A DNA stretch of 32,000 bases from Flavobacteriaceae bacterium (lineage in GTDB: Bacteria > Bacteroidota > Bacteroidia > Flavobacteriales > Flavobacteriaceae), in contig OZ245049.1 of assembly GCA_965224465.1 (NCBI GenBank), forward strand, positions 2,280,001 through 2,312,000, written 5' to 3'. Within the stretch, counting starts at the first letter, position 1, and each line of letters begins with the position of its first letter. A model generated the notes under the pieces. The model was not told where the DNA came from. It searched no databases and saw nothing but the letters and a program-made list of their open reading frames with translations. The translations under genes were made by a program, and so were the position numbers. This document shows, in pieces, positions 14,751 through 32,000 of this stretch.

Positions 14751-15959
<1,209 letters not shown>

Positions 15960-16028
15960 GACTAAAAAAATAAGTATTGTAAAATAGTGTTCTTCTTAAA
16001 CCTTACTGTTTTACAAATCCTAAAAATA

Positions 16029-16065
16029 AATCCCAAAGCCTTAGTATGACTAAGAATTTGGGATT
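16029..16065. terminator. Long hairpin between cas2 and the first repeat
   Basis: AATCCCAAA (16029-16037) pairs with TTTGGGATT (16057-16065), and an inner stem pairs CTTAG (16040-16044) with CTAAG (16050-16054). It could terminate the cas operon (+) and/or array transcription (-). Confidence 0.5.
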
Positions 16066-16068
16066 GAC

Positions 16069-19000
16069 CCTGTGATTGCTCACGTAAAAATACAATTTTG
16101 AAATCAATTCACAACTGTCCTCTCGATGATGCAGATGCATTATGTCCTGTGATTGCTCACGTAAAAATACAATTTTGAAATCAATTCACAACACGATGCA
16201 ATTAATTTGTCGTATGCTAGACCCTGTGATTGCTCACGTAAAAATACAATTTTGAAATCAATTCACAACAAATTGGACTGGTGATTTTGACGTTAAAACC
16301 CTGTGATTGCTCACGTAAAAATACAATTTTGAAATCAATTCACAACTAATCTCCTTGATAGTTTAACACTTCGTTTCCTGTGATTGCTCACGTAAAAATA
16401 CAATTTTGAAATCAATTCACAACGCCATTTTATCTAATTCTTAAAATTTTAAACCTGTGATTGCTCACGTAAAAATACAATTTTGAAATCAATTCACAAC
16501 TGTATTTAGAAACACGCCCATAGCAATCAACCTGTGATTGCTCACGTAAAAATACAATTTTGAAATCAATTCACAACTGAGGCTGATAGCCTTCTGTTCT
16601 TCAATTACCTGTGATTGCTCACGTAAAAATACAATTTTGAAATCAATTCACAACAATTGCTTGTAGTTAGCATCTACTCCTCCTCCTGTGATTGCTCACG
16701 TAAAAATACAATTTTGAAATCAATTCACAACATTCTACTAACCAGTTCATCATATAATCCCCCTGTGATTGCTCACGTAAAAATACAATTTTGAAATCAA
16801 TTCACAACAGTATCTAACAATAGTATTTTACCTCTAACCCTGTGATTGCTCACGTAAAAATACAATTTTGAAATCAATTCACAACGATTACATGTGTTAT
16901 GAAAAATAGTACATGCCTGTGATTGCTCACGTAAAAATACAATTTTGAAATCAATTCACAACTTAAAATATCATTATTCAATGTTGATATTTCCTGTGAT
17001 TGCTCACGTAAAAATACAATTTTGAAATCAATTCACAACTAAACTTCAGTGAATACTTCGCAGGTAAGGAACCTGTGATTGCTCACGTAAAAATACAATT
17101 TTGAAATCAATTCACAACAATAGATACTGTTTGTCAATTAAATATTATCCTGTGATTGCTCACGTAAAAATACAATTTTGAAATCAATTCACAACCAATA
17201 TGTCAGTATCAATATGTCAGTATCACCTGTGATTGCTCACGTAAAAATACAATTTTGAAATCAATTCACAACTAAAAGCCATAACTATTACATTTCAATA
17301 TCCCTGTGATTGCTCACGTAAAAATACAATTTTGAAATCAATTCACAACTGTTGTAATAACGAATAAGTAGTTGTATATCCTGTGATTGCTCACGTAAAA
17401 ATACAATTTTGAAATCAATTCACAACTATAAGTCGCCCTGATAGTTCTAAGATATGCCTGTGATTGCTCACGTAAAAATACAATTTTGAAATCAATTCAC
17501 AACAAGATCAGCGATCGCTTTTTCATGAGTCTCCCTGTGATTGCTCACGTAAAAATACAATTTTGAAATCAATTCACAACCATTTCAATTACTTCAAAAA
17601 CTATTTTTCCTGTGATTGCTCACGTAAAAATACAATTTTGAAATCAATTCACAACTTGGTGCGGCTGACGTGATTCAATAGCATCGCCTGTGATTGCTCA
17701 CGTAAAAATACAATTTTGAAATCAATTCACAACGACACAATGCATCTTTTGGTAACCTGTGATTGCTCACGTAAAAATACAATTTTGAAATCAATTCACA
17801 ACTAACGGCTTAAATGAATTTCTGTAAATCGCCTGTGATTGCTCACGTAAAAATACAATTTTGAAATCAATTCACAACGAAGGCTAATACATTTATTGAC
17901 AAGTAATTACCTGTGATTGCTCACGTAAAAATACAATTTTGAAATCAATTCACAACAAGTTTGTAGTTCCATATATTGAAGCATCTCCTGTGATTGCTCA
18001 CGTAAAAATACAATTTTGAAATCAATTCACAACTGAGGCTTACTAACCAGTTCTGAACTTCTATTTCCTGTGATTGCTCACGTAAAAATACAATTTTGAA
18101 ATCAATTCACAACAGTATCTCTTACTAAGAGTATTTTACCTTTTAACCCTGTGATTGCTCACGTAAAAATACAATTTTGAAATCAATTCACAACTATCCA
18201 TTGCGAAAATATCGTACATCATAACCCTGTGATTGCTCACGTAAAAATACAATTTTGAAATCAATTCACAACTTGATTTCGCTATTGGGTTTCTATCGGG
18301 ATCCTGTGATTGCTCACGTAAAAATACAATTTTGAAATCAATTCACAACTAAATTGTGAGAACTAATAAGTGTTGTACATCCTGTGATTGCTCACGTAAA
18401 AATACAATTTTGAAATCAATTCACAACCTATTTCTTTTATTAAACATTTGGAAATTTCCTGTGATTGCTCACGTAAAAATACAATTTTGAAATCAATTCA
18501 CAACTTACCCTCGTCAACTTCTGGATTTACAGCCTGTGATTGCTCACGTAAAAATACAATTTTGAAATCAATTCACAACATTCTGCGATGGTCTGTTTAA
18601 GAGCTATGTCCTGTGATTGCTCACGTAAAAATACAATTTTGAAATCAATTCACAACAACTAACAATCGAATCCTTAAGCGTTCCTACCTGTGATTGCTCA
18701 CGTAAAAATACAATTTTGAAATCAATTCACAACTTATAGCTTCACTTGCCTTTGATTTTTTAACCTGTGATTGCTCACGTAAAAATACAATTTTGAAATC
18801 AATTCACAACAGAGTATAAATCGGTCATTAAAAGACATATCCTGTGATTGCTCACGTAAAAATACAATTTTGAAATCAATTCACAACATGATACCAATTA
18901 TCAAATACAACTTGATGCCTGTGATTGCTCACGTAAAAATACAATTTTGAAATCAATTCACAACGCTTAGCAGGTTTCGTTCTATTGAGTAAGACCTGTG

Positions 19001-19118
19001 ATTGCTCACGTAAAAATACAATTTTGAAATCAATTCACAACAACAAACATTTGCACTTACTCCTTTAGTCCCCTGTGATTGCTCACGTAAAAATACAATT
19101 TTGAAATCAATTCACAAC
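16069..19118 (-). CRISPR. CRISPR array: 40 x 47-nt repeats, 39 spacers (22-34 nt, mode 30)
   Basis: The + strand repeat is CCTGTGATTGCTCACGTAAAAATACAATTTTGAAATCAATTCACAAC. In the inferred crRNA sense (minus) it is GTTGTGAATTGATTTCAAAATTGTATTTTTACGTGAGCAATCACAGG. I noticed no repeat variant on reading, and repeat plus spacer lengths sum exactly to 3050 bp. The strand call rests on the GTTGT 5' end and on the tracrRNA anti-repeat strand; that orientation has about 0.7 confidence. Confidence 0.97.
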
Positions 19119-19260
19119 GCGTATCTGTACCAGTAATCGACCGTATTATTTTGAAAAGAAATGATAGTTAAAAAAAGAATTAAAAGATATAGGGGGAATT
19201 AAAAAAAATAGCATTTAAAAATACCCAAAGAGTTACTTTTACTGCTTTTTATAAAAAAGA

Positions 19261-19290
19261 AAATCCTTCAAGCAAAAGCTTAAAGGATTT
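19261..19290 (-). terminator. Hairpin downstream of tRNA-Gln
   Basis: AAATCCTT (19261-19268) pairs with AAGGATTT (19283-19290), with an inner AAGC/GCTT stem. On the minus strand it is followed by CTTTTTTATAAAAA. Confidence 0.5.
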
Positions 19291-19302
19291 CTAAAAATAC
19301 CG

Positions 19303-19373
19303 TTGTCCCACAAGGACTCGAACCTTGAATGACGATACCAAAAACCGGAGTGTTACCATTACACCATGGGACA
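19303..19373 (-). tRNA. tRNA-Gln (anticodon UUG)
   Basis: The reverse complement folds as a cloverleaf. Acceptor stem TGTCCCA/TGGGACA. D arm GTGT-AATGGTA-ACAC. Anticodon arm CCGGT-TTTTGGT-ATCGT, with one C.U and one G.U pair. T arm CAAGG-TTCGAGT-CCTTG. Discriminator A. CCA is not encoded. Confidence 0.82.
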
Positions 19374-19391
19374 TTGTTGTTATTTCGGTTG

Positions 19392-19399
19392 CAAAATTA
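19392..19399 (-). promoter_or_regulatory. Candidate -7 box (TAATTTTG) for tRNA-Gln
   Basis: A perfect TAnnTTTG on the minus strand, 18 nt upstream of the mature tRNA 5' end. Confidence 0.4.
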
Positions 19400-19550
19400 A
19401 GGGTTTATTTCGTACCCACAAACATTTTTTTAACTTTTTTTTCAAAAATATTTTTTTAACAACTTTTTATGAGAAAATCGCAGTAGTAACTGACTGATTA
19501 CCGCATGATATGTAGTATTTTTAGTAAATTCGCCTCGATAAAAAAAATTT

Positions 19551-22500
19551 ATGAACTTTACAGATTTTAAAAAATGGAACACCATTTTTGGCTGGATAGC
19601 CTTTGGTATTGCACTTGTAACATACACCCTCACACTAGAACCAACAGTAAGTTACTGGGATTGCGGCGAGTATATTTCCACGGCAGTTAAATTAGAGGTA
19701 GGACATCCACCAGGAGCTCCGTTATTCCAAATGATAGGCGCTTTTTTCGCCATGTTCACTACAGACGCCTCTCAAGTAGCTCAAATGGTGAATTTTATGT
19801 CTGGTTTAGCCAGTGCTTTTACCATTCTTTTTATGTTTTGGACCATTACATATCTGGGACAAAAACTACTTTCTAAAGACAACAAAAACAATATTGCGCT
19901 CTTCGGAAGTGCTTTTGTAGGGTCTTTGGCCTACACTTTTTCGGATAGTTTTTGGTTTAGCGCCGTAGAAGGAGAAGTATATGCTATGTCGTCCTTTTTA
20001 ATGGCATTATTATTTTGGCTTGGATTGCGATGGGAATCGGACATGGACAAACCACAAGGAAACAAATGGCTTGTTTTAATTAGTTTTATTGTTGGGCTAT
20101 CCTTTGGGGTCCATATTTTATCTTTATTAGTCATTCCTTCTATCGTATTTATTTATATTTTCAAAAAATACGACATCAACAATATTCAAAAATTTGTTAT
20201 TGCCAACATTATTTCTGTTTTAGTCTTAATGTTTGTATTTAAATTTTTATTTCCATTTACCTTAAAATATTTCAGTGCATTTGAACTGTTTTTCGTCAAC
20301 AAAATTGGACTTCCATTTAACAGCGGAAGTATTATAGCTGCCTTTTTAATTATCGCAGTATTTTATGCCGCACTTAAATACACGCGTAGTAAAAAAATGT
20401 TTGCTGCCAACACACTTGTTCTTGTACTTGTATTTACCATGATTGGTTTTTCTTCTTGGTTAATGCTTCCTATTAGAGCAAATGCAAACACAACTATTAA
20501 CGAAAACAACCCCTCAAGCGCCCGTGAGCTATTAGCGTATTACAACAGGGAGCAATATGGAGATTCTAACGTGTTCTACGATAATTATTACTCGTTCTCT
20601 TACGACAGAGAGTACGATGCCTCCAACCCTACAAGAGACGAGAAACCTAAATACGAGAAAGACGAAAAAACGGGAACGTATGTAATTGTCAACCACTATA
20701 AAGATGCTTTACCCAATTGGAGTGACTCACATAAAGGATTTATCCCACGTATGGTTGCCTACAACAGCCCTTCTGTGATTGCGAACTACAAATCCATTGT
20801 TGGCATCCCTCAAAAAAGTCATCGAAGACCTACGTTTGCAGAGAACATCCATTTTATGATAGAATACCAATTCGGCTATATGTACGGTCGATATTTTATG
20901 TGGAATTTTGTAGGAAGACAGAACGATGTACAAGGACAATTAAACCTTGAGGATGGGAATTGGTTAAGTGGTATTGATTTTATAGACAGTTTCTTTTTAG
21001 GCACTCAAAAAAACCTACCCGATGATGTTAAAAATAACAAAGGAAGAAACACTTATTATTTCTTTCCATTTATTCTTGGATTTATAGGATTATTTTATCA
21101 ACTGAAGCGCAATAAAAAAGATTTCTACACCCTCCTACTCTTTTTTGCTTTTACAGGGCTTGCCATTATATTTTACACCAATCCAAAACCTTTTGAACCT
21201 AGAGAACGAGATTACGCTGTAGTTGGCTCTTTTTATATTTTTGCCATTTGGATTGGATTTGGAGTCCTTGCTATATTTGAAAAACTATCTAAATACGCAC
21301 AAAAAAACCAAGTAGCCATCGCAGTTTCACTACTTGCACTACTTGCAGTACCCACTTTAATGGCATTCCAAAACTGGGATGATCATGACAGGTCTAATCG
21401 ATACACCTCTCGATTAAACGCCAAAGCTTATATTGATTCTTGTGCCGAAAACGCCATTATGTTTACCATTGGAGATAATGATACCTTTCCACTGTGGTAC
21501 ATGCAAGAAGTAGAAAATTACCGAACAGATATCAAACTGATCAACTCAAGTTTATTTGCGACCGATTGGAATATTGATCAAATGAAACGCGCCACATACA
21601 AAGCGCCTCCGATCCCTTCACAATTGACACACGACGATTATAAACTAGGAAGTTTAGACATTGCCTATCACGTACCTTTTCCTCAATTTAAAGATACGAT
21701 TATAGATATTAAATACTTGATGAGATGGTTGCAAAGTAAGAACGAGAATACGTTTATTGATTTAGACGAAGACGGACGTCCCGAAAAAGTATATCCGACC
21801 AACCGTATCAGAATTCCTGTAAACAAGGAGGCCGTTCTTAAAAACGGTATTGTAGCTCAAAAAGATGCTGATTTAATCCTACCGTATATCGATATTACGA
21901 TTGACGCACAAGGATTGCAAAAAAACAGAATTTTAATGCTTGATATTTTAGCCAATAACGACTGGAAGCAACCTATTTATTTTACAGGAGGCGCACAAGC
22001 TGCAGAAGAATTTATTTGGTTAAAAGACTATTTACAACTAGATGGAATGGCTTATAAACTAGTCCCTATAAAAACCGTAAATAAGAGTAATTTCTTTGAA
22101 ATGGGACGTATGGATTCTGAATTGATGTACAAAAAAGTAAAACAATGGGAATGGGGAACTATTAACAGTGATGCTATATACTTAGACCCAGAATCTCGTA
22201 AAAATTCTGTTACCTATCGCAACAATATGGAGCGTTTAGCTACTACTTTAATCAAAGAAGGAGATTCGATTCGCGCAGAGGAAATCATAGATTTAGCCAT
22301 GGATAAGATGCCGACCAAAAAATTTGGTCATTACAGTATGTTATTGCCATTTATAGATTTATATTACAAGATAGATAGGCCTGAAAAAGCACGTCGATTA
22401 AGTGAAGAATTGGCAGAGATATTCAAGCAAAAACTTGTGTATTACAGTCAGTATAACGAAGCGGATCTTGAAGCAGTTTACGATCCCATTGAAGGTAGTT

Positions 22501-25687: not shown

Positions 25688-28501
25688 ATGCCTACTCAAA
25701 AACGCCTATTTTTACTCGATGCTTTTGCTTTAATTTTCAGAGGATATTACGCCTTGATAAAAAACCCACGCATCAATTCGAAAGGAATGGACACCTCTGC
25801 TATTTTAGGGTTTACCAATTCGTTATTAGACGTTATCAAGCGAGAAAAACCAGATTTACTAGCCGTAGCATTTGACAAGGGAGGCTCTCATGCACGTGTA
25901 GCCGCATTTCCAGAATACAAATCAAACAGACAAGAAACTCCCGAAGCCATAAAAATAGCGGTACCTTATATACAAGCCATCTTAAAAGCCATGAACATCC
26001 CCATTATAGAAGTGGCAGGATTTGAGGCAGATGATCTGATTGGAACCTTGGCAAAACAAGCAGAAAAAGAAGGATTTCAGACTTTTATGGTTACTCCTGA
26101 CAAGGATTTTGCGCAGTTGGTTTCTGAAAATATTTTTATGTACAAACCAGCCCGTATGGGAAATGGGATCGAGATTTGGGGAATTCCCGAAGTTCAAAAA
26201 CGTTTTGAAGTAGAAACACCTATACAAGTAATTGATTATTTAGGAATGATGGGAGATGCCGTGGATAACATCCCTGGGCTACCTGGCGTTGGAGACAAAA
26301 CAGCGAAAAAATTTCTAAAAGCTTACGGAACTATGGAAGGCTTGTTTGAAAACACCCATGAGCTTAAAGGTAAAATGAAAGAAAAGGTAGAAAACAATAA
26401 GGAACTGGGATTGCTTTCAAAGCAATTGGCTACTATAATGCTCGACTGCCCCGTAACATTTAAAGCAGATGATTACGAACTAACTCCTCCCAATTTTGAG
26501 GAGGTTAATAGCATTTTACAAGAATTAGAATTTAAACGTATTGCAGACAGCATTGGTCGTATTTTTAATGCCCAATCAAAAACCAATACCACAGCAACTA
26601 GCACAACAACAGTCAATGCTAGTGGAGAAGCGCAGTTGGATTTATTTGCTAGCCCTTCATCAGAAAACAACAACACCATGTCTTCTGGCTTTAATACCCT
26701 AGAAAAAAACGCTCATTTTTACCAATATATAGATTCAGAAATGGCAAAAGGATTGTTTCTAAAAAAACTGATCCAACAAAAATCGGTGAGTATTGAATTA
26801 GAAACCAGTGAACAAAATCCATTGACGGCATGTATTTTAGGAATCGCATTTTCTTACCATGCAGGCAGTGGTTATTACATCCCTTTTCCTAGTGATTTTG
26901 AAGCATCTGTATTGCTTGTCCAAGAGTTGAAACCTTTTTTCGAAAACAAAAATATCGAGAAGATTGGGCGTCATTTAAAAAACGACATCAAGGTACTCTC
27001 GCGCTATAACACGCAATTAAAAGGAGCTATTTTTGACACGACTATCGCACATTATTTATTGCAGCCAGACATGAGACATCATCTAGATATCTTGTCAGAA
27101 ACCTATCTCAAGTACGAAATAATGCAAGAGGATTCGGTGTTAGGTAAAGGACGCAATAAAATTACATTGAACCATGTATCGCTTGAAAAACAACGAAATT
27201 ACGTTGTTGAAAAAGCAGATGTTGTGTTTCAATTAAAATCGATTTTCGAAATAAAATTAGCTGAAAAAAACCTAGATTCTTTATACAATGATATTGAATT
27301 GCCTTTATTAAAAGTATTGGCACAAATGGAATTGGAAGGAATTAAATTAGATGTTCCATTTTTAAACGCTTTATCTACGGATTTGACCACTGATATTGCA
27401 GTTTTAGAAAAATCTATTTACGAAGAAGCCAATACCGATTTTAATTTAGCATCTCCAAAACAATTAGGCGTTGTTTTATTTGAGCACATGAAATTGGTAG
27501 AAAAACCTAAAAAGACAAAAACTGGACAGTACGCTACAGGCGAAGAAATCCTATCTAAACTTGCCAAGGACCATCCTATAGTACAGCGTATTTTGGAATG
27601 GAGAGGTTTGGTGAAATTAAAAAACACCTATGTAGATGCCTTGCCAAACGAGGTAAACAAAGAAACCAAAAGAGTACACACTACTTTTAGTCAAGCAGTG
27701 GCTGCAACGGGAAGATTAAGTTCTAACAATCCCAACTTACAGAACATTCCAATCCGTACCAAACGCGGTCAGGAAGTACGTAAATCTTTTATTGCTAAAA
27801 ACGAGAATTACACCTTGGTTGCAGCAGATTACTCACAAATAGAATTGCGTTTAATTGCAGCCATGAGTGGAGACGAAACCATGATTAAAGCATTTAACGA
27901 TGGACAAGACATACATGCTGCCACCGCTTCAAAAGTTTTTGATGTTGCCTTAGAAGATGTAACTAAAACCCAACGTAGCGATGCCAAGGCGGTTAACTTT
28001 GGAATTATTTACGGACAAGGAGCCTTCACATTAGCACAGCAATTAAACAAATCAAGAAAAGAAGCCAAAGAACTGATTGACAACTATTACGCTAACTTTT
28101 CTAAACTCAAAGAATACATTGCAGCACAAGTAGAAATTGCTCGCGAAAAAGGCTATGTAGAAACCGTTCTCGGTAGACGCCGCTATTTAAAAAACATCAA
28201 TTCCCAAAACGCCATTGTCCGTAGTGCCGATGAACGAAATGCTGTGAATGCACCTGTACAAGGTTCGGCAGCAGATATCATTAAAATTGCCATGATTAAC
28301 ATCCAACAATTATTAAATGATGGTAATTATAAAACAAAAATGCTTTTACAGGTACATGATGAATTGGTTTTTGATATGCACAACGATGAAATGGATACCT
28401 TAAAACCATTAATTAAAAATGCCATGGAATCAGCATATAAAATGTCAGTTCCATTGGATGTAGATATGGGTGAAGGTAGGAATTGGCTGGAAGCGCATTA
28501 G
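25688..28501 (+). CDS. polA: DNA polymerase I
   Basis: 937-aa ORF with three parts: a 5'-3' exonuclease N-terminus (LLDAFALIFRGYYA, GDAVDNIPGLPGVGDKTA), a 3'-5' exonuclease-like middle, and family A polymerase motifs (DYSQIELR, RSDAKAVNFGIIYG, QVHDELVF). Confidence 0.97.
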   Translation: MPTQKRLFLLDAFALIFRGYYALIKNPRINSKGMDTSAILGFTNSLLDVIKREKPDLLAVAFDKGGSHARVAAFPEYKSNRQETPEAIKIAVPYIQAILKAMNIPIIEVAGFEADDLIGTLAKQAEKEGFQTFMVTPDKDFAQLVSENIFMYKPARMGNGIEIWGIPEVQKRFEVETPIQVIDYLGMMGDAVDNIPGLPGVGDKTAKKFLKAYGTMEGLFENTHELKGKMKEKVENNKELGLLSKQLATIMLDCPVTFKADDYELTPPNFEEVNSILQELEFKRIADSIGRIFNAQSKTNTTATSTTTVNASGEAQLDLFASPSSENNNTMSSGFNTLEKNAHFYQYIDSEMAKGLFLKKLIQQKSVSIELETSEQNPLTACILGIAFSYHAGSGYYIPFPSDFEASVLLVQELKPFFENKNIEKIGRHLKNDIKVLSRYNTQLKGAIFDTTIAHYLLQPDMRHHLDILSETYLKYEIMQEDSVLGKGRNKITLNHVSLEKQRNYVVEKADVVFQLKSIFEIKLAEKNLDSLYNDIELPLLKVLAQMELEGIKLDVPFLNALSTDLTTDIAVLEKSIYEEANTDFNLASPKQLGVVLFEHMKLVEKPKKTKTGQYATGEEILSKLAKDHPIVQRILEWRGLVKLKNTYVDALPNEVNKETKRVHTTFSQAVAATGRLSSNNPNLQNIPIRTKRGQEVRKSFIAKNENYTLVAADYSQIELRLIAAMSGDETMIKAFNDGQDIHAATASKVFDVALEDVTKTQRSDAKAVNFGIIYGQGAFTLAQQLNKSRKEAKELIDNYYANFSKLKEYIAAQVEIAREKGYVETVLGRRRYLKNINSQNAIVRSADERNAVNAPVQGSAADIIKIAMINIQQLLNDGNYKTKMLLQVHDELVFDMHNDEMDTLKPLIKNAMESAYKMSVPLDVDMGEGRNWLEAH

Positions 28502-28610
28502 AAAAACCTTAACACAAACAAGCTCGTAGAACAAATATCAAATTTAAAACAGAAAGTATAAAAATTGTCCGTAAATTTGTCCGTGTACGTAAAAACGTCC
28601 GCAAATAAAT

Positions 28611-30818
28611 ATGGCAACAATAAACTTTTACTTAGACAAACCTGATAAAAAAGGATTTGCACCAATTCATTTGAGAATAAACTGTAATGGAAGTCAAATA
28701 AAACTATCTACAGGACAGAAAATACAACCAAAAAAGTTTGACAAAAAAAACCAACAAGCAATAGGGTTAAGTAATGAATCTAACGAAATAAATCACTATT
28801 TAAATTTTTTGACAGAAAGAGCAGACGAACTTTTACACCATTCTAATAAAAAGATATTTATTCAAGATGAAGTTAAAACGATTTTAAATGAGCATATCAA
28901 TAACTACAAAGAGAACAACAATGTAACTATTGTTAGAGAACAAATTCCTCTCTACGGTAAGCCGTTCACTTTTGTAGATTTATTTGCGGGTGCAGGTGGA
29001 TTTAGTGAAGGATTTTTACAAGCAGAATCTAATAATAAATTTTTCGATTTTATCGTAGCAAATGACATCAACGAAAACTGTGAATTAACTCACGTAGTCC
29101 GTTATAATCATCAACTAGGATTAGATGCTGAATTTTTAAGACAAGACATCACTGAACCCGATTTTTTAGACAATCTCTTAACCAAAATTAAAGGAAAAAA
29201 AATAGATGTAGTTTGTGGAGGACCACCATGTCAAAGCTTTAGTCTAGCGGGAAAAAGAAGGAAATTTGACAAAAAAGACGATTTATTCACTCACTATCTA
29301 GAAGTAATTAAGGTATTACAACCAAAATACTTTGTAATGGAAAATGTGAAGGGAATTCTAACTAAAGAAGGCGGAAAAATAAAGGAATTAATCATTAAAG
29401 AAATCAATTCTATTGTTGACATTAAAGAGATCCCATTACTAAATTCATTCATAAAAAAAGTAAGAAAAGAATCAAATGCTTTTCTTTTTGATAGTCTTAT
29501 AAAAAGAGTAGAACTTGAAAAATTACTTGAGAAAGACAAAGAATCTGGAAGAGCAGATTTTATTCAATTTGTGGAAAATAGATTCAAAAAGTTAATCCCT
29601 AAAATAGCAGATTACAAGACCAGTAAAACAGACGAAAACATCCATACAATTCGACATGGATTTAATCTATTAGCACGCGCAAAGGAATGGAACAAACTAA
29701 AAAGGGATATAATAAAAGAGAAAGATTTTTGTAATATTGATAGTGATAATTTTGTTAACACATTTACAGTTTTTCTTACAGAAATAGGTTCTGAAAATAT
29801 TATTTCAAAAATTGAAACCGCTTTCAAATCTTTAAAAGTTCCTACAAACTACAAAAAAGATTGTGCAGACATTATAATTGCTCTAAAAATATACACAACC
29901 TCTTTTGATGAATCAATAGAAATCTTAAAAACTCATTGTAACGTATCACAAAAAAAGGAATTGGGTACAATTCTTGAAAGCATTAGACTCTATAAAATAG
30001 AAAAACCTTTTGTTGCTAACGCATCAAATTATGGAGTTCCTCAAAATAGAGAAAGAGTTCTTTTTATTGGCTGTCGTAAAGACCAAAAATACATTTCTGA
30101 AATACCAGCAACAGTATCAGAAAAAGAGAAAGTAACTATTTTTGAAGCACTTTATGACCTAGATTTTATTGGAAACAATCAAGAAGCACATCATTATGAA
30201 TTGATTGATATTTCAACACAATATAACGGAAAATCGAAAAAAATGACTAAGCTTCTTAAAAAAAGAAATATAGACGGAAAACCGAATATTAAATCCGGAA
30301 AAACTTTTGCTGAATGGTCAAAAAAAGGAAGGTTAATTGATCGTTTCAAGCCACAAACAAAGCCTTTCTATGTTAAAAACACCCAAGGACTAGAGAATGG
30401 AGAAAAATATTTTGATTCTCTTAACAATCACAAAACAAGCAATCAAAATGAAACAGTAATTGAGCGCCTTAAAGTTATTTTAAAAAATGGCACTTATAAA
30501 AAAGCACAAACTCAGTTAGAAAAACTTAATCTTTCTTCAAAAAAGAGAAATTATAATGTTTTAAAACCAGATCAACAAAGTTCTACAATAATGACTATTC
30601 CAGATGATTATGTTCATTATAATTCTCCTCGTGCATTAACGGTTAGAGAAATGGCACGCCTACAATCATTTGATGATTCCTTTGTTTTTCAAGGAAAACG
30701 TTCAACTGGAGGAAACAATAGAAAAACTGAAGTGCCACAATACACACTTGTTGGAAATGCAGTTCCTCCATTGTTAGCAAGAGCAGTTGCAAATGAAATT
30801 TTAAAACACATCAAGTGA
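28611..30818 (+). CDS. DNA (cytosine-5)-methyltransferase fused to an N-terminal integrase-type Arm DNA-binding domain
   Basis: C5-MTase motifs: I FVDLFAGAGGFSEGF (aa 121-135), IV GGPPCQSFS (C207), VI ENVKG (244-248), VIII QNRERV (478-483), X GNAVPPLLA. Residues 1 to about 100 (MATINFYLDKPDKKGFAPIHLRINCNGSQIKLSTGQKI..) resemble the N-terminus of Bacteroidota tyrosine integrases. No other ATG lies upstream of motif I. Confidence 0.88.
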   Translation: MATINFYLDKPDKKGFAPIHLRINCNGSQIKLSTGQKIQPKKFDKKNQQAIGLSNESNEINHYLNFLTERADELLHHSNKKIFIQDEVKTILNEHINNYKENNNVTIVREQIPLYGKPFTFVDLFAGAGGFSEGFLQAESNNKFFDFIVANDINENCELTHVVRYNHQLGLDAEFLRQDITEPDFLDNLLTKIKGKKIDVVCGGPPCQSFSLAGKRRKFDKKDDLFTHYLEVIKVLQPKYFVMENVKGILTKEGGKIKELIIKEINSIVDIKEIPLLNSFIKKVRKESNAFLFDSLIKRVELEKLLEKDKESGRADFIQFVENRFKKLIPKIADYKTSKTDENIHTIRHGFNLLARAKEWNKLKRDIIKEKDFCNIDSDNFVNTFTVFLTEIGSENIISKIETAFKSLKVPTNYKKDCADIIIALKIYTTSFDESIEILKTHCNVSQKKELGTILESIRLYKIEKPFVANASNYGVPQNRERVLFIGCRKDQKYISEIPATVSEKEKVTIFEALYDLDFIGNNQEAHHYELIDISTQYNGKSKKMTKLLKKRNIDGKPNIKSGKTFAEWSKKGRLIDRFKPQTKPFYVKNTQGLENGEKYFDSLNNHKTSNQNETVIERLKVILKNGTYKKAQTQLEKLNLSSKKRNYNVLKPDQQSSTIMTIPDDYVHYNSPRALTVREMARLQSFDDSFVFQGKRSTGGNNRKTEVPQYTLVGNAVPPLLARAVANEILKHIK

Positions 30819-31993
30819 GAAACCTAACAGAATCAGAACAAAAAAAGATAAAATTACTAACAAAAAACCAAGTATCTATTACACTAATTGAACCTACTGA
30901 AACTGGGCTAAAAAAATCTATTATGGATGCTACAGGTTCAGTACGTAATTTTTTAAAAAACGAGAACATTCACAATTTTGAGTTACAAAAACAGGGGCCT
31001 AATTACAAGGTACTAATTCCTACTGTTATTCATACTGAATTTAAAACAACTAAATCAACAGCATCTTTATACCGTCCTGTCACCAAAAGTGGAGACCCTA
31101 GAATTTGGTTCTATAAAATGACAAAGATTGCAGCAGCAAATGACATTGTAGCAATCACATATTTTGACGGTAGTTTTCATGTTTTTAACCTTACACAACT
31201 AGATATTGAAACTTTAGTAAATTCTTCTATTCAAAACCCCTTACAAGATTTAATCAGAGAAATTAATAGTACAGAAAATGAAGTAGCATTTGAGCTTTTA
31301 GGAATGTTAAGAAAAATAGCGAGTGCTGGTCCAATTCCTTCAATGGTTGACGCTGACACTTCTGTTGGAAGAACACTCGAGACCGCACTTGGAATTGCAA
31401 TAAATTCTTCAAGAAAACCAGATTATAAAGGGATTGAATTAAAGTCTTTTAGAAAAAGCAGAACAAATAGGAAAAATCTATTTGCACAAGTTCCAGATTG
31501 GAGTTTAAGTAAATTTAAAAGTTCTACCGAAATTCTGAATAATTTCGGATATGAACGTGGTCAGGATTTTAAGCTATATTGTACAGCTTCAGCAATTACA
31601 AGAAATTCACAAGGTCTGAATCTTAGAATTAATAATGACTTAAAACAATTGATTGAGAATTCAGATAAGCCAGAAATTGGAGACTTTGTTATCTGGACTT
31701 TAGATAAACTTCACAACCGACTAAAAGAAAAGCACAAAGAAACATTTTGGGTTGAAGCAGAAAGTACGAGAATAAATAACCGTGAGCATTTTCAATACAA
31801 ATTAGTTGAGCACACAAAAAAACCTATAACTTCTCAGTTTGATTTACTAATTGACCAAGGAATTATAACGCTTGACCATTTAATTAAACGAAACTCAAAA
31901 GGGAGAGTCGTTGAAAAGGGTCCCTTATTTAAAATTAAACCGAAGGGAATTGAACTTCTTTTCCCTCCTAGTGAAAGTTATCTTTTAATTTAA
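30815..31993 (+). CDS. Putative type II restriction endonuclease, MvaI/BcnI (MutH-like) catalytic core with an extra N-terminal domain
   Basis: The GTG start overlaps the MTase TGA stop (GTGA). PDYKGIELK gives D203-x4-E208-x-K210, the same spacing as the D-x4-E-x-K site I recall for BcnI/MvaI. An upstream GRTLETALGI segment is present. The first roughly 170 aa are unassigned. The alternative ATG start is at residue 37. Confidence 0.55.
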   Translation: MRNLTESEQKKIKLLTKNQVSITLIEPTETGLKKSIMDATGSVRNFLKNENIHNFELQKQGPNYKVLIPTVIHTEFKTTKSTASLYRPVTKSGDPRIWFYKMTKIAAANDIVAITYFDGSFHVFNLTQLDIETLVNSSIQNPLQDLIREINSTENEVAFELLGMLRKIASAGPIPSMVDADTSVGRTLETALGIAINSSRKPDYKGIELKSFRKSRTNRKNLFAQVPDWSLSKFKSSTEILNNFGYERGQDFKLYCTASAITRNSQGLNLRINNDLKQLIENSDKPEIGDFVIWTLDKLHNRLKEKHKETFWVEAESTRINNREHFQYKLVEHTKKPITSQFDLLIDQGIITLDHLIKRNSKGRVVEKGPLFKIKPKGIELLFPPSESYLLI

Positions 31994-32000
31994 TCTGAAT

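Follow-up and report, generated by a model that had tools for sequence, protein, structure and literature searches.

A C5 DNA methyltransferase with an integrase-type Arm domain and a candidate operator in a mobile restriction-modification operon of Bacteroidota

Several type II C5 DNA methyltransferases, among them M.SsoII, M.Ecl18kI, M.EcoRII and M.MspI, carry an N-terminal DNA-binding extension of ~70–100 amino acids. The N-terminal regions of M.SsoII, M.Ecl18kI and M.EcoRII bind operators in their own promoters, which leads to self-repression (PMC3978073, PMC2760811, PMC12707154). A 2025 review describes all such regulatory methyltransferases as helix-turn-helix (HTH) fusions (PMC12707154). 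A methyltransferase with a different N-terminal extension, here called M, is encoded in a 32,000-nt stretch of a Flavobacteriaceae genome (OZ245049.1 positions 2,280,001–2,312,000, forward strand). This whole stretch is referred to as the window and all coordinates are relative to it. The M gene occupies 28611–30818 on the + strand, begins with ATG and encodes 735 amino acids (aa). Judged by homology, the first ~92 residues of M are the arm-type DNA-binding domain of a Bacteroidota tyrosine integrase. We consider it rather probable that this captured Arm domain acts on GTCCGT-type hexamers at the M promoter, making M a self-repressing regulatory methyltransferase.

The extension of M (aa 1–118) precedes motif I, as it does in the SsoII/EcoRII-type enzymes, and as in those systems a candidate operator lies in the gene's own promoter and self-repression is proposed. 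The regulatory domain is HTH in the SsoII/EcoRII type whereas it is an Arm beta-sheet domain (PF17293) in M, and the two have no sequence homology. No HTH match was found in the M N-terminus with Pfam or AlphaFold2 (AF2). The candidate operator of M consists of four direct hexamers, unlike the palindromic operator of SsoII and Ecl18kI. In the latter systems the operator lies between separately transcribed restriction (R) and M genes, whereas here M and R run in the same direction with coupled translation. The locus can also be compared with the C-protein restriction-modification (R-M) systems, in which, as proposed for M, a dedicated DNA-binding module acts on repeated operator sites overlapping the promoter. 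C proteins, however, are small free-standing HTH proteins, typically activating first and repressing later, while the module here is fused to M and is not HTH. A literature search found no description of an Arm domain combined with a methyltransferase.

Domain structure and integrase origin of M

An earlier note on this DNA had read 28611–30818 as an integrase-type Arm N-terminus fused in frame to a C5 methyltransferase, and Pfam finds both domains above cut-off. Arm-DNA-bind_5 (PF17293) matches aa 9–73 with 29.7 bits when the whole protein is queried and with 35.4 bits (E 1.6e-8) when aa 1–120 are queried alone, both above the curated cut-off of 22.6 bits. DNA_methylase (PF00145) matches two stretches, the first from aa 119, with 185.7 bits, and the NCBIfam dcm model TIGR00675 scores 159.2 bits. 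Motif I, FVDLFAGAGG, is at aa 121–130 (28971–29000) where the note had placed it, and is followed in the translation by GGPPCQ (IV), ENV (VI), QNRER (VIII), REMARLQSF (IX) and GNAVPP (X). The profile score and the presence of motifs I, IV, VI, VIII, IX and X place M among the C5 cytosine DNA methyltransferases. M is not a tyrosine recombinase, as it has neither the core-binding nor the Phage_integrase domain. Pfam gave no match to PF13102 or PF00589 in the M open reading frame (ORF) at E ≤ 1, so the ORF contains no remnant of a SAM_5 core-binding or catalytic integrase domain. Of the three profiles named in the note, Arm-DNA-bind_5 and DNA_methylase are thus present and Phage_int_SAM_5 is absent.

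The ATG at 28611 is, as claimed, the only one before motif I. Residues 2–120 are free of Met, and no in-frame start lies further upstream. The start of M is annotated 14 aa earlier (MSVNLSVYV...) in P0049, P0077, P0081, P0122, P0128 and P0133, at an ATG within the candidate operator. The upstream starts are probably mis-annotated because their reading frame is not conserved between loci.

To trace the N-terminus, aa 1–118 were compared with 1.84 billion representatives in an exhaustive phmmer search, which gave 132 matches. After members of the same methyltransferase family these include proteins of ~400–450 aa that align at their residues 1–~100. All five full-length proteins of this size that were examined with Pfam are integrases possessing Arm_5, Phage_int_SAM_5 and Phage_integrase domains. 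Where measured by BLASTP, the M N-terminus is 43–52% identical to integrases over the first 56–93 residues, and integrases P0186 and P0196 open with MATINFYLDK, identical to the start of M. Alignment of the M N-terminal profile with Bacteroidota integrases using hhalign gave a probability of 99.7% (E 2e-25) and joined M aa 1–92 to integrase aa 1–94. The integrase core-binding domain starts at ~aa 103–118. Because the alignment ends before this domain, and Phage_int_SAM_5 has no match, the suggestion that the N-terminus also contains the start of a SAM-like core-binding domain is not supported. A word-indexed search with only the M N-terminus as query gave fragments of the same family and nothing else, and no relatives were found in viral contigs.

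AF2 modelled aa 1–118 with a predicted local distance difference test (pLDDT) of 83. Strands are predicted at aa 3–8, 17–25 and 28–38 and helices at aa 55–76 and 85–102, with low confidence at aa 104–111. The model has the three-stranded beta sheet and helix expected of the Arm-DNA-bind_5 fold. In a Foldseek search of BFVD it matched phage integrases at E 6e-6, 5e-5 and 2e-3. An AF2 model of full-length M was set aside, since its pLDDT was 46 and its Foldseek matches were meaningless.

The Arm segment occupies 28611–28829 (all segments are on the + strand). It is followed at 28830–28964 by the end of helix 1, helix 2 and a linker of the AF2 model (aa 74–118), which form the fusion junction; integrase homology stops within it at ~aa 92. 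Profiles and translation place the N-terminal lobe of the methyltransferase, with motifs I, IV and VI, at 28965–29411 (aa 119–267), and the C-terminal part, with motif VIII, the target-recognition region and motifs IX and X, at 29991–30818 (aa 461–735), ending in the TGA stop codon at 30816–30818. Between motifs VI and VIII lies an all-helical insertion of ~190 aa (aa 268–460, 29412–29990). The insertion matches no Pfam family, its AF2 helices have pLDDT 60–83, and its ratio of nonsynonymous to synonymous substitution rates (dN/dS) of 0.062 indicates that it is conserved. It could be an oligomerisation module that aids cooperative binding to the operator.

The earlier note proposed looking for the same architecture in other genomes, and it is widespread. 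The best 120 homologues in a search of 5.8 billion proteins are all 734–749 aa long, 86–93% identical and annotated with both PF17293 and PF00145, and they derive from many Flavobacteriaceae genera. A contig scan of a genome collection with one genome per species identified 138 relatives, and 80 loci were kept as the comparative set. These belong to Flavobacteriales, Bacteroidales, Cytophagales, Chitinophagales and Saprospiraceae and are 75–91% identical to M. The fusion is present in all of them at the same length, with M intact in 80/80 loci (732–738 aa). Relative to the window copy, dN/dS is 0.063 for aa 1–118, 0.079 for the Pfam Arm segment and 0.024–0.062 for the rest of M, while dS is saturated (1.5–2.1). 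Because dN/dS is low with dS saturated, the Arm part is, by this measure, maintained by selection. In locus L081, M is split into 496 and 233 aa and R is absent; a perfect operator is still present.

The hexamer array and predicted promoter

A 36-bp block, TGTCCGTAAATTTGTCCGTGTACGTAAAAACGTCCGT, is located upstream of M at 28567–28602. It divides into GTCCGTAAATTTGTCCGT|GTACGTAAAAACGTCCGC, two tandem 18-bp units of the form hexamer-N6-hexamer. Candidate operator unit 1 (28567–28584, + strand) reads GTCCGT-AAATTT-GTCCGT, matches exactly with a 12-bp period and is near-invariant in 81 copies. Candidate operator unit 2 (28585–28602, + strand), GTACGT-AAAAAC-GTCCGC, is a degenerate copy of unit 1 with 2 mismatches. 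The whole block is nearly invariant in the 81 copies, whereas the coding DNA falls to 70–75% identity with saturated synonymous sites. Its distance to the ATG varies between 29 and 34 nt among copies, which argues that the block is not coding. The composite repeat motif occurs in the window only at 28567–28602. In 1.16 Mb of related loci it gave 133 matches at the operator position compared with 3 weak matches elsewhere.

Even the most divergent family members, whose N-termini are 46–56% identical, retain the array with hexamers that are exact or nearly so. Unit 2 in these relatives is either an exact GTCCGT-N6-GTCCGT or GTCCGT-N6-GTCCGa. The L081 array reads GTCCGT AATTTT GTCCGT GTCCGT AAAATA GTCCGT, and in L082/83 GTCCGTAAATTTGTCCGT occurs twice with GTCCGa as the final hexamer. 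L038 (9930–10000) has an additional 12-bp repeat, TTTGTCCGTAAA twice, resulting in five hexamers.

The flavobacterial sigma-A −7 box has the consensus TAnnTTTG and is located at −12 to −5 (PMC9723704). A predicted −7 box of this type, TAAATTTG, is found inside unit 1 (28572–28579, + strand). TAnnTTTG is present in the unit 1 spacer in 83/86 loci, with variation solely at the two n positions, and in 78/85 loci the 130 bp upstream contain no other such box. Because the box would take the −12 to −5 position, transcription is predicted to start at ~28584. Unit 1 would then cover the −7 box and unit 2 would span +2 to +19, so that the array, in the promoter region of its own operon, would overlap predicted −7 box and start site alike.

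Similar repeats were found upstream of related integrase genes. The sample consisted of the five loci with N-termini closest to M, which start xxxNFYLDK. In 5/5 a direct hexamer pair with a 12-bp period lies 23–72 nt upstream of the integrase ATG. The pairs are GTCCGTATATTTGTCCGT in P0195, which also encloses a TAnnTTTG box, GTCCGTAAAATAGACCGT in P0186, situated between a tRNA 3' end and int, GACCGTAATATTGACTGT in P0196, GTCGGTTATAATGTCGGC in P0191 and GTCCTGTAAACTGTCCTG in P0281. The hexamer sequence varies among the five integrases, as do their Arm sequences. Such variation is the pattern that would be expected of a cognate protein-site pair, five loci being too few for a covariation test.

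The M operon therefore shares two features with the Bacteroidota Arm-DNA-bind_5 integrases (P0186, P0195 and P0196; the family includes the CTnDOT type), namely homology over the first ~92 aa and a GTCCGT-like hexamer pair with a 12-bp period shortly before the start codon. Unlike these integrases, M has no SAM_5 or catalytic domain and cannot recombine DNA, and its repeat unit is doubled. No arm site for this PF17293 subfamily was found in the literature searched.

Because the nearest integrase genes carry similar upstream hexamer pairs, the simplest history would be joint capture of the promoter, the arm-type sites and the Arm domain from an integrase gene. The 5' end of that gene (promoter, arm-type sites and codons 1–~92) would have been fused to a C5 methyltransferase as one piece. 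Duplication of the repeat unit after fusion would then have produced the four hexamers.

Other repeats were noted in the course of these comparisons. The att-proximal arm at L084:95–142 contains TGACACC four times with a ~12-bp period, and the att-proximal arm at L179:795–830 contains GATAACCAACGATAAA twice. These are possibly additional arm-type or accessory-factor sites. Approximately 70 IMG/VR contigs (L094–L178) carry GCGTCCGTATCTTTGTCCGTAAC in an apparent conserved phage coding region, a coincidental match to the operator pattern.

The restriction gene and the mobile operon

The restriction endonuclease gene R (30815–31993, + strand) encodes 392 aa from a GTG start that overlaps the M stop codon as GTGA. 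R has an MvaI/BcnI domain at aa 163–383 (31301–31963; PF15515, 257.8 bits, cut-off 25), resembles the R.MvaI structure 2oa9 at E 4.5e-6 and is called REase_II by PADLOC. The N-terminal ~160 aa (30815–31300) have no Pfam, NCBIfam or PDB match. Pentamers were counted in 0.88 Mb of host flanks, comprising L001–L080 and window 1–28500. CCAGG/CCTGG is the most under-represented pentamer, with 431 observed and 710 expected (observed/expected 0.61), whereas CCCGG/CCGGG (CCSGG) is at expectation (1.00). Since CCWGG is depleted in the flanks and R aligns to R.MvaI, the R-M system is probably specific for CCWGG.

R belongs to the same MvaI/BcnI family as R.MvaI (PDB 2OA9), and the CCWGG depletion is consistent with an MvaI-like specificity. 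The methyltransferases of the two systems differ. M.MvaI is an N4-cytosine methyltransferase, whereas M is a C5 enzyme with an Arm domain and a helical insert of ~190 aa. R.MvaI is 249 aa long, and R here has the extra N-terminal region of ~160 aa.

Together these features suggest that 28567–31993 is a mobile type II R-M operon consisting of its own predicted promoter, M and R. In several loci 0.5–2.3 kb inserts sit precisely between M and R (L003:12211–13925 and L031:4104–6313, also L002, L042, L044 and L072). ORFs in the inserts are closely spaced and run in the same direction, and some encode GmrSD_N/DUF262-like proteins (71.8 bits in L003). With ORF-bearing inserts at this position the operon acts as a small expandable defence locus.

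Bacteroidota integrons have been described before, as have cassettes encoding restriction or methylation functions (PMC8618304). The operon takes the form of an integron gene cassette in most relatives, with a G|TTACCTGCAAGC junction at its start and an attC-like imperfect palindrome at its end. The cassettes sit in arrays of co-oriented small ORFs separated by attC-like repeats of ~140 bp (...ACAACACCGTGTATAA ... ATACACAACAACGTTGT), for example at L016:1–12000, L019:7449–13802 and L090:760–4800. An IntI-like tyrosine recombinase is sometimes nearby. The one at L019 7449–8624 scored 200 bits with TIGR02249, below the cut-off of 265, and 218 with NF040815, for which the cut-off is 220. Scans of short contigs for tRNA and Rfam families found no rRNA or tRNA, and the contig ends are attC repeats. 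The identity of 75–91% across orders and the many stand-alone contigs of 3.6–4.0 kb are explained by the operon travelling as an integron cassette.

The attC-like bounds, the G|TT junction, the co-oriented arrays and the occasional IntI-like neighbour are shared with other defence and R-M integron cassettes. Unlike the usual integron cassette, the M-R cassette is proposed to carry its own regulated promoter. The earlier note had proposed looking beyond 32000 for the rest of an integrase or for an island with att repeats. The flanking repeats of the relatives are integron attC sites beside an IntI-like recombinase and not att sites of an Arm-type integrase. Just downstream of the cassette in L077 (3817–3894) is a group II intron domain (RF00029, 61.9 bits).

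The window copy directly abuts polA (25688–28501), which lies upstream. Relative to the canonical cassette it is missing the first ~75–100 bp, and at its 3' end it runs past base 32000. The left boundary of the shared R-M unit is at 28502–28545 (+ strand), homology to other genomes starting right after the polA stop codon at 28499–28501. When the window was compared with the 80 loci by blastn, DNA matches began at 28526–28566 and never included polA. Adjacency to polA is unique to the window copy among the 80 loci. The window copy is 91% identical in DNA sequence to the L090 cassette, and a near-identical copy, P0293 (L090–93), is found in a different context, an attC array. An approximate IntI probe had no match in the window. 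Elsewhere in the window a region of ~3.9 kb (15616–19551) contains no ORF of at least 120 aa and a single tRNA gene (19303–19373, minus strand, 55 bits).

Proposed self-repression and alternative explanations

If M represses its own operon, the promoter would be free on arrival in a naive cell, allowing production of M and, by translational coupling, of R. As M accumulates, its Arm domains would settle on the four hexamers, covering the −7 box together with the transcription start and keeping RNA polymerase out. Operon transcription would then be shut down at a self-contained, host-independent set-point. A host-independent set-point would suit an operon that travels as an integron cassette. 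The earlier note had offered two readings of the fusion, one of them a functional module that tethers or autoregulates the methyltransferase. This reading draws its support from comparative evidence, namely the near-invariant repeats in the promoter region and the pairs of the same type upstream of related integrases. Comparison between genomes provides strong evidence for the fusion and its cognate sites, from which we infer repression.

Several points weigh against self-repression. Binding of the hexamers by the Arm domain, promoter activity of the box and repression are all conclusions drawn from sequence. There is no clear −33 TTG element upstream of the −7 box, and the transcription start is a prediction. 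The integrase sample is small, at 5 loci. An unbiased scan of viral contigs for GTCCGTANNTTTGTCCGT was uninformative, as none of the 85 matches lies upstream of an xxxNFYLDK ORF and nearly all of them are one unrelated conserved phage coding motif. A Foldseek search of the PDB with the N-terminal model gave no match below E 0.1, and a profile search of PDB sequences found no solved relative of the arm domain. Because the operon runs co-directionally from M to R, repression by M would also lower R, and this mechanism does not itself account for a delay of R when a new host is entered. Finally, the repeats could be bound by an integrase encoded by the host or by an element rather than by M.

The Arm domain might instead serve the enzyme, as a DNA clamp, in target search or by recruiting M, with the upstream block being a strong promoter or a host-factor site. 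Extra DNA-binding domains on methyltransferases can modulate catalysis, and methylation by M.SsoII is reported to be inhibited by the regulatory site (PMC6100179). The binding of M to the repeats is, moreover, itself presumed. A pure promoter, however, does not need four phased GC-rich hexamers reaching to +19. The same hexamer pairs also precede integrase genes of this Arm subtype, with hexamers that differ where the Arms differ, as expected of a cognate pair, and this makes a purely enzymatic role unlikely. Because the module derives from a recombination protein and the operon is mobile, being an integron cassette in many genomes and located elsewhere in others, we wondered whether the Arm domain and arm-type sites form a nucleoprotein complex that helps a recombinase excise or insert the cassette, as in integrase intasomes. 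The repeats are positioned by the ATG and the −7 box and not by the cassette ends. In arrays they are ~130 bp from the G|TT junction, and they are kept where the attC flanks are absent. M itself has no recombinase domain, and we know of no integron integrase that uses arm sites. A role as a mobility accessory is accordingly very unlikely.

The conserved 36 nt could also act as RNA, in a 5' untranslated region structure that controls translation, and not as a DNA operator. The window sequence folds with −13.8 kcal/mol (z = −2.5), and in all copies the R2 hexamer region UUGUCCGUG (28577–28585) is complementary to the start-codon region UAUGGCAACA (28610–28620), so that a hairpin formed by this pairing could mask the AUG. 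Both sides of the pairing are, however, invariant for other reasons. The consensus fold over 21 diverse copies reaches only −2 kcal/mol without compensatory changes, third-position changes in a Thr codon break pairs and are uncompensated, and unit 1 would be untranscribed if the predicted start holds. Direct repeats common to the upstream regions of integrase genes do not suggest an RNA fold either, and we give the RNA explanation very little credence. The other reading in the earlier note was a relic, in which a resident integrase gene beside polA received an R-M cassette by recombination and the Arm domain is dead weight. The M N-terminus is clearly of integrase origin, and the window copy directly follows polA with a truncated cassette 5' end. 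Yet the fusion has the same length in 80/80 loci from several Bacteroidota orders with unrelated flanks. The dN/dS of ~0.06–0.08 with saturated dS indicates purifying selection, and the ORF holds no SAM_5 or catalytic-domain remnant. Amino acid divergence of 9–25% excludes that the homologues are duplicates of one assembly sequence. With adjacency to polA found only here, a local relic is scarcely credible, and the relic idea survives only as a description of an ancient fusion origin.

Self-repression by M thus remains the explanation that we favor. A further, rather improbable proposal is that the Arm domain has kept the specificity of integrative elements with GTCCGT-type arm sites, leading to cross-talk between such elements and the R-M cassette. 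If so, M could occupy the arm sites of elements and block their integration or excision, which would amount to defence or to competition between mobile elements. In the opposite direction, an incoming R-M operon could be silenced by resident integrases of this family. Such cross-talk would connect restriction-modification with site-specific recombination at the level of regulation.

Regulatory methyltransferases have so far been described only with HTH N-termini, and the M family would add a second, independently evolved solution. It appears to represent the en bloc exaptation of an integrase arm-binding domain, its cognate sites and promoter into a portable switch with which a toxic gene pair regulates itself. 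The comparison also yields a predicted recognition sequence for the PF17293 subfamily, GTCCGT with a 12-bp period, and in Bacteroidota genetics the module could find use as a compact repressor-operator pair that is orthogonal. Through its abundance in Bacteroidota, marine Flavobacteriaceae among them, and its spread as an integron cassette, the family may affect how genes flow through these communities.

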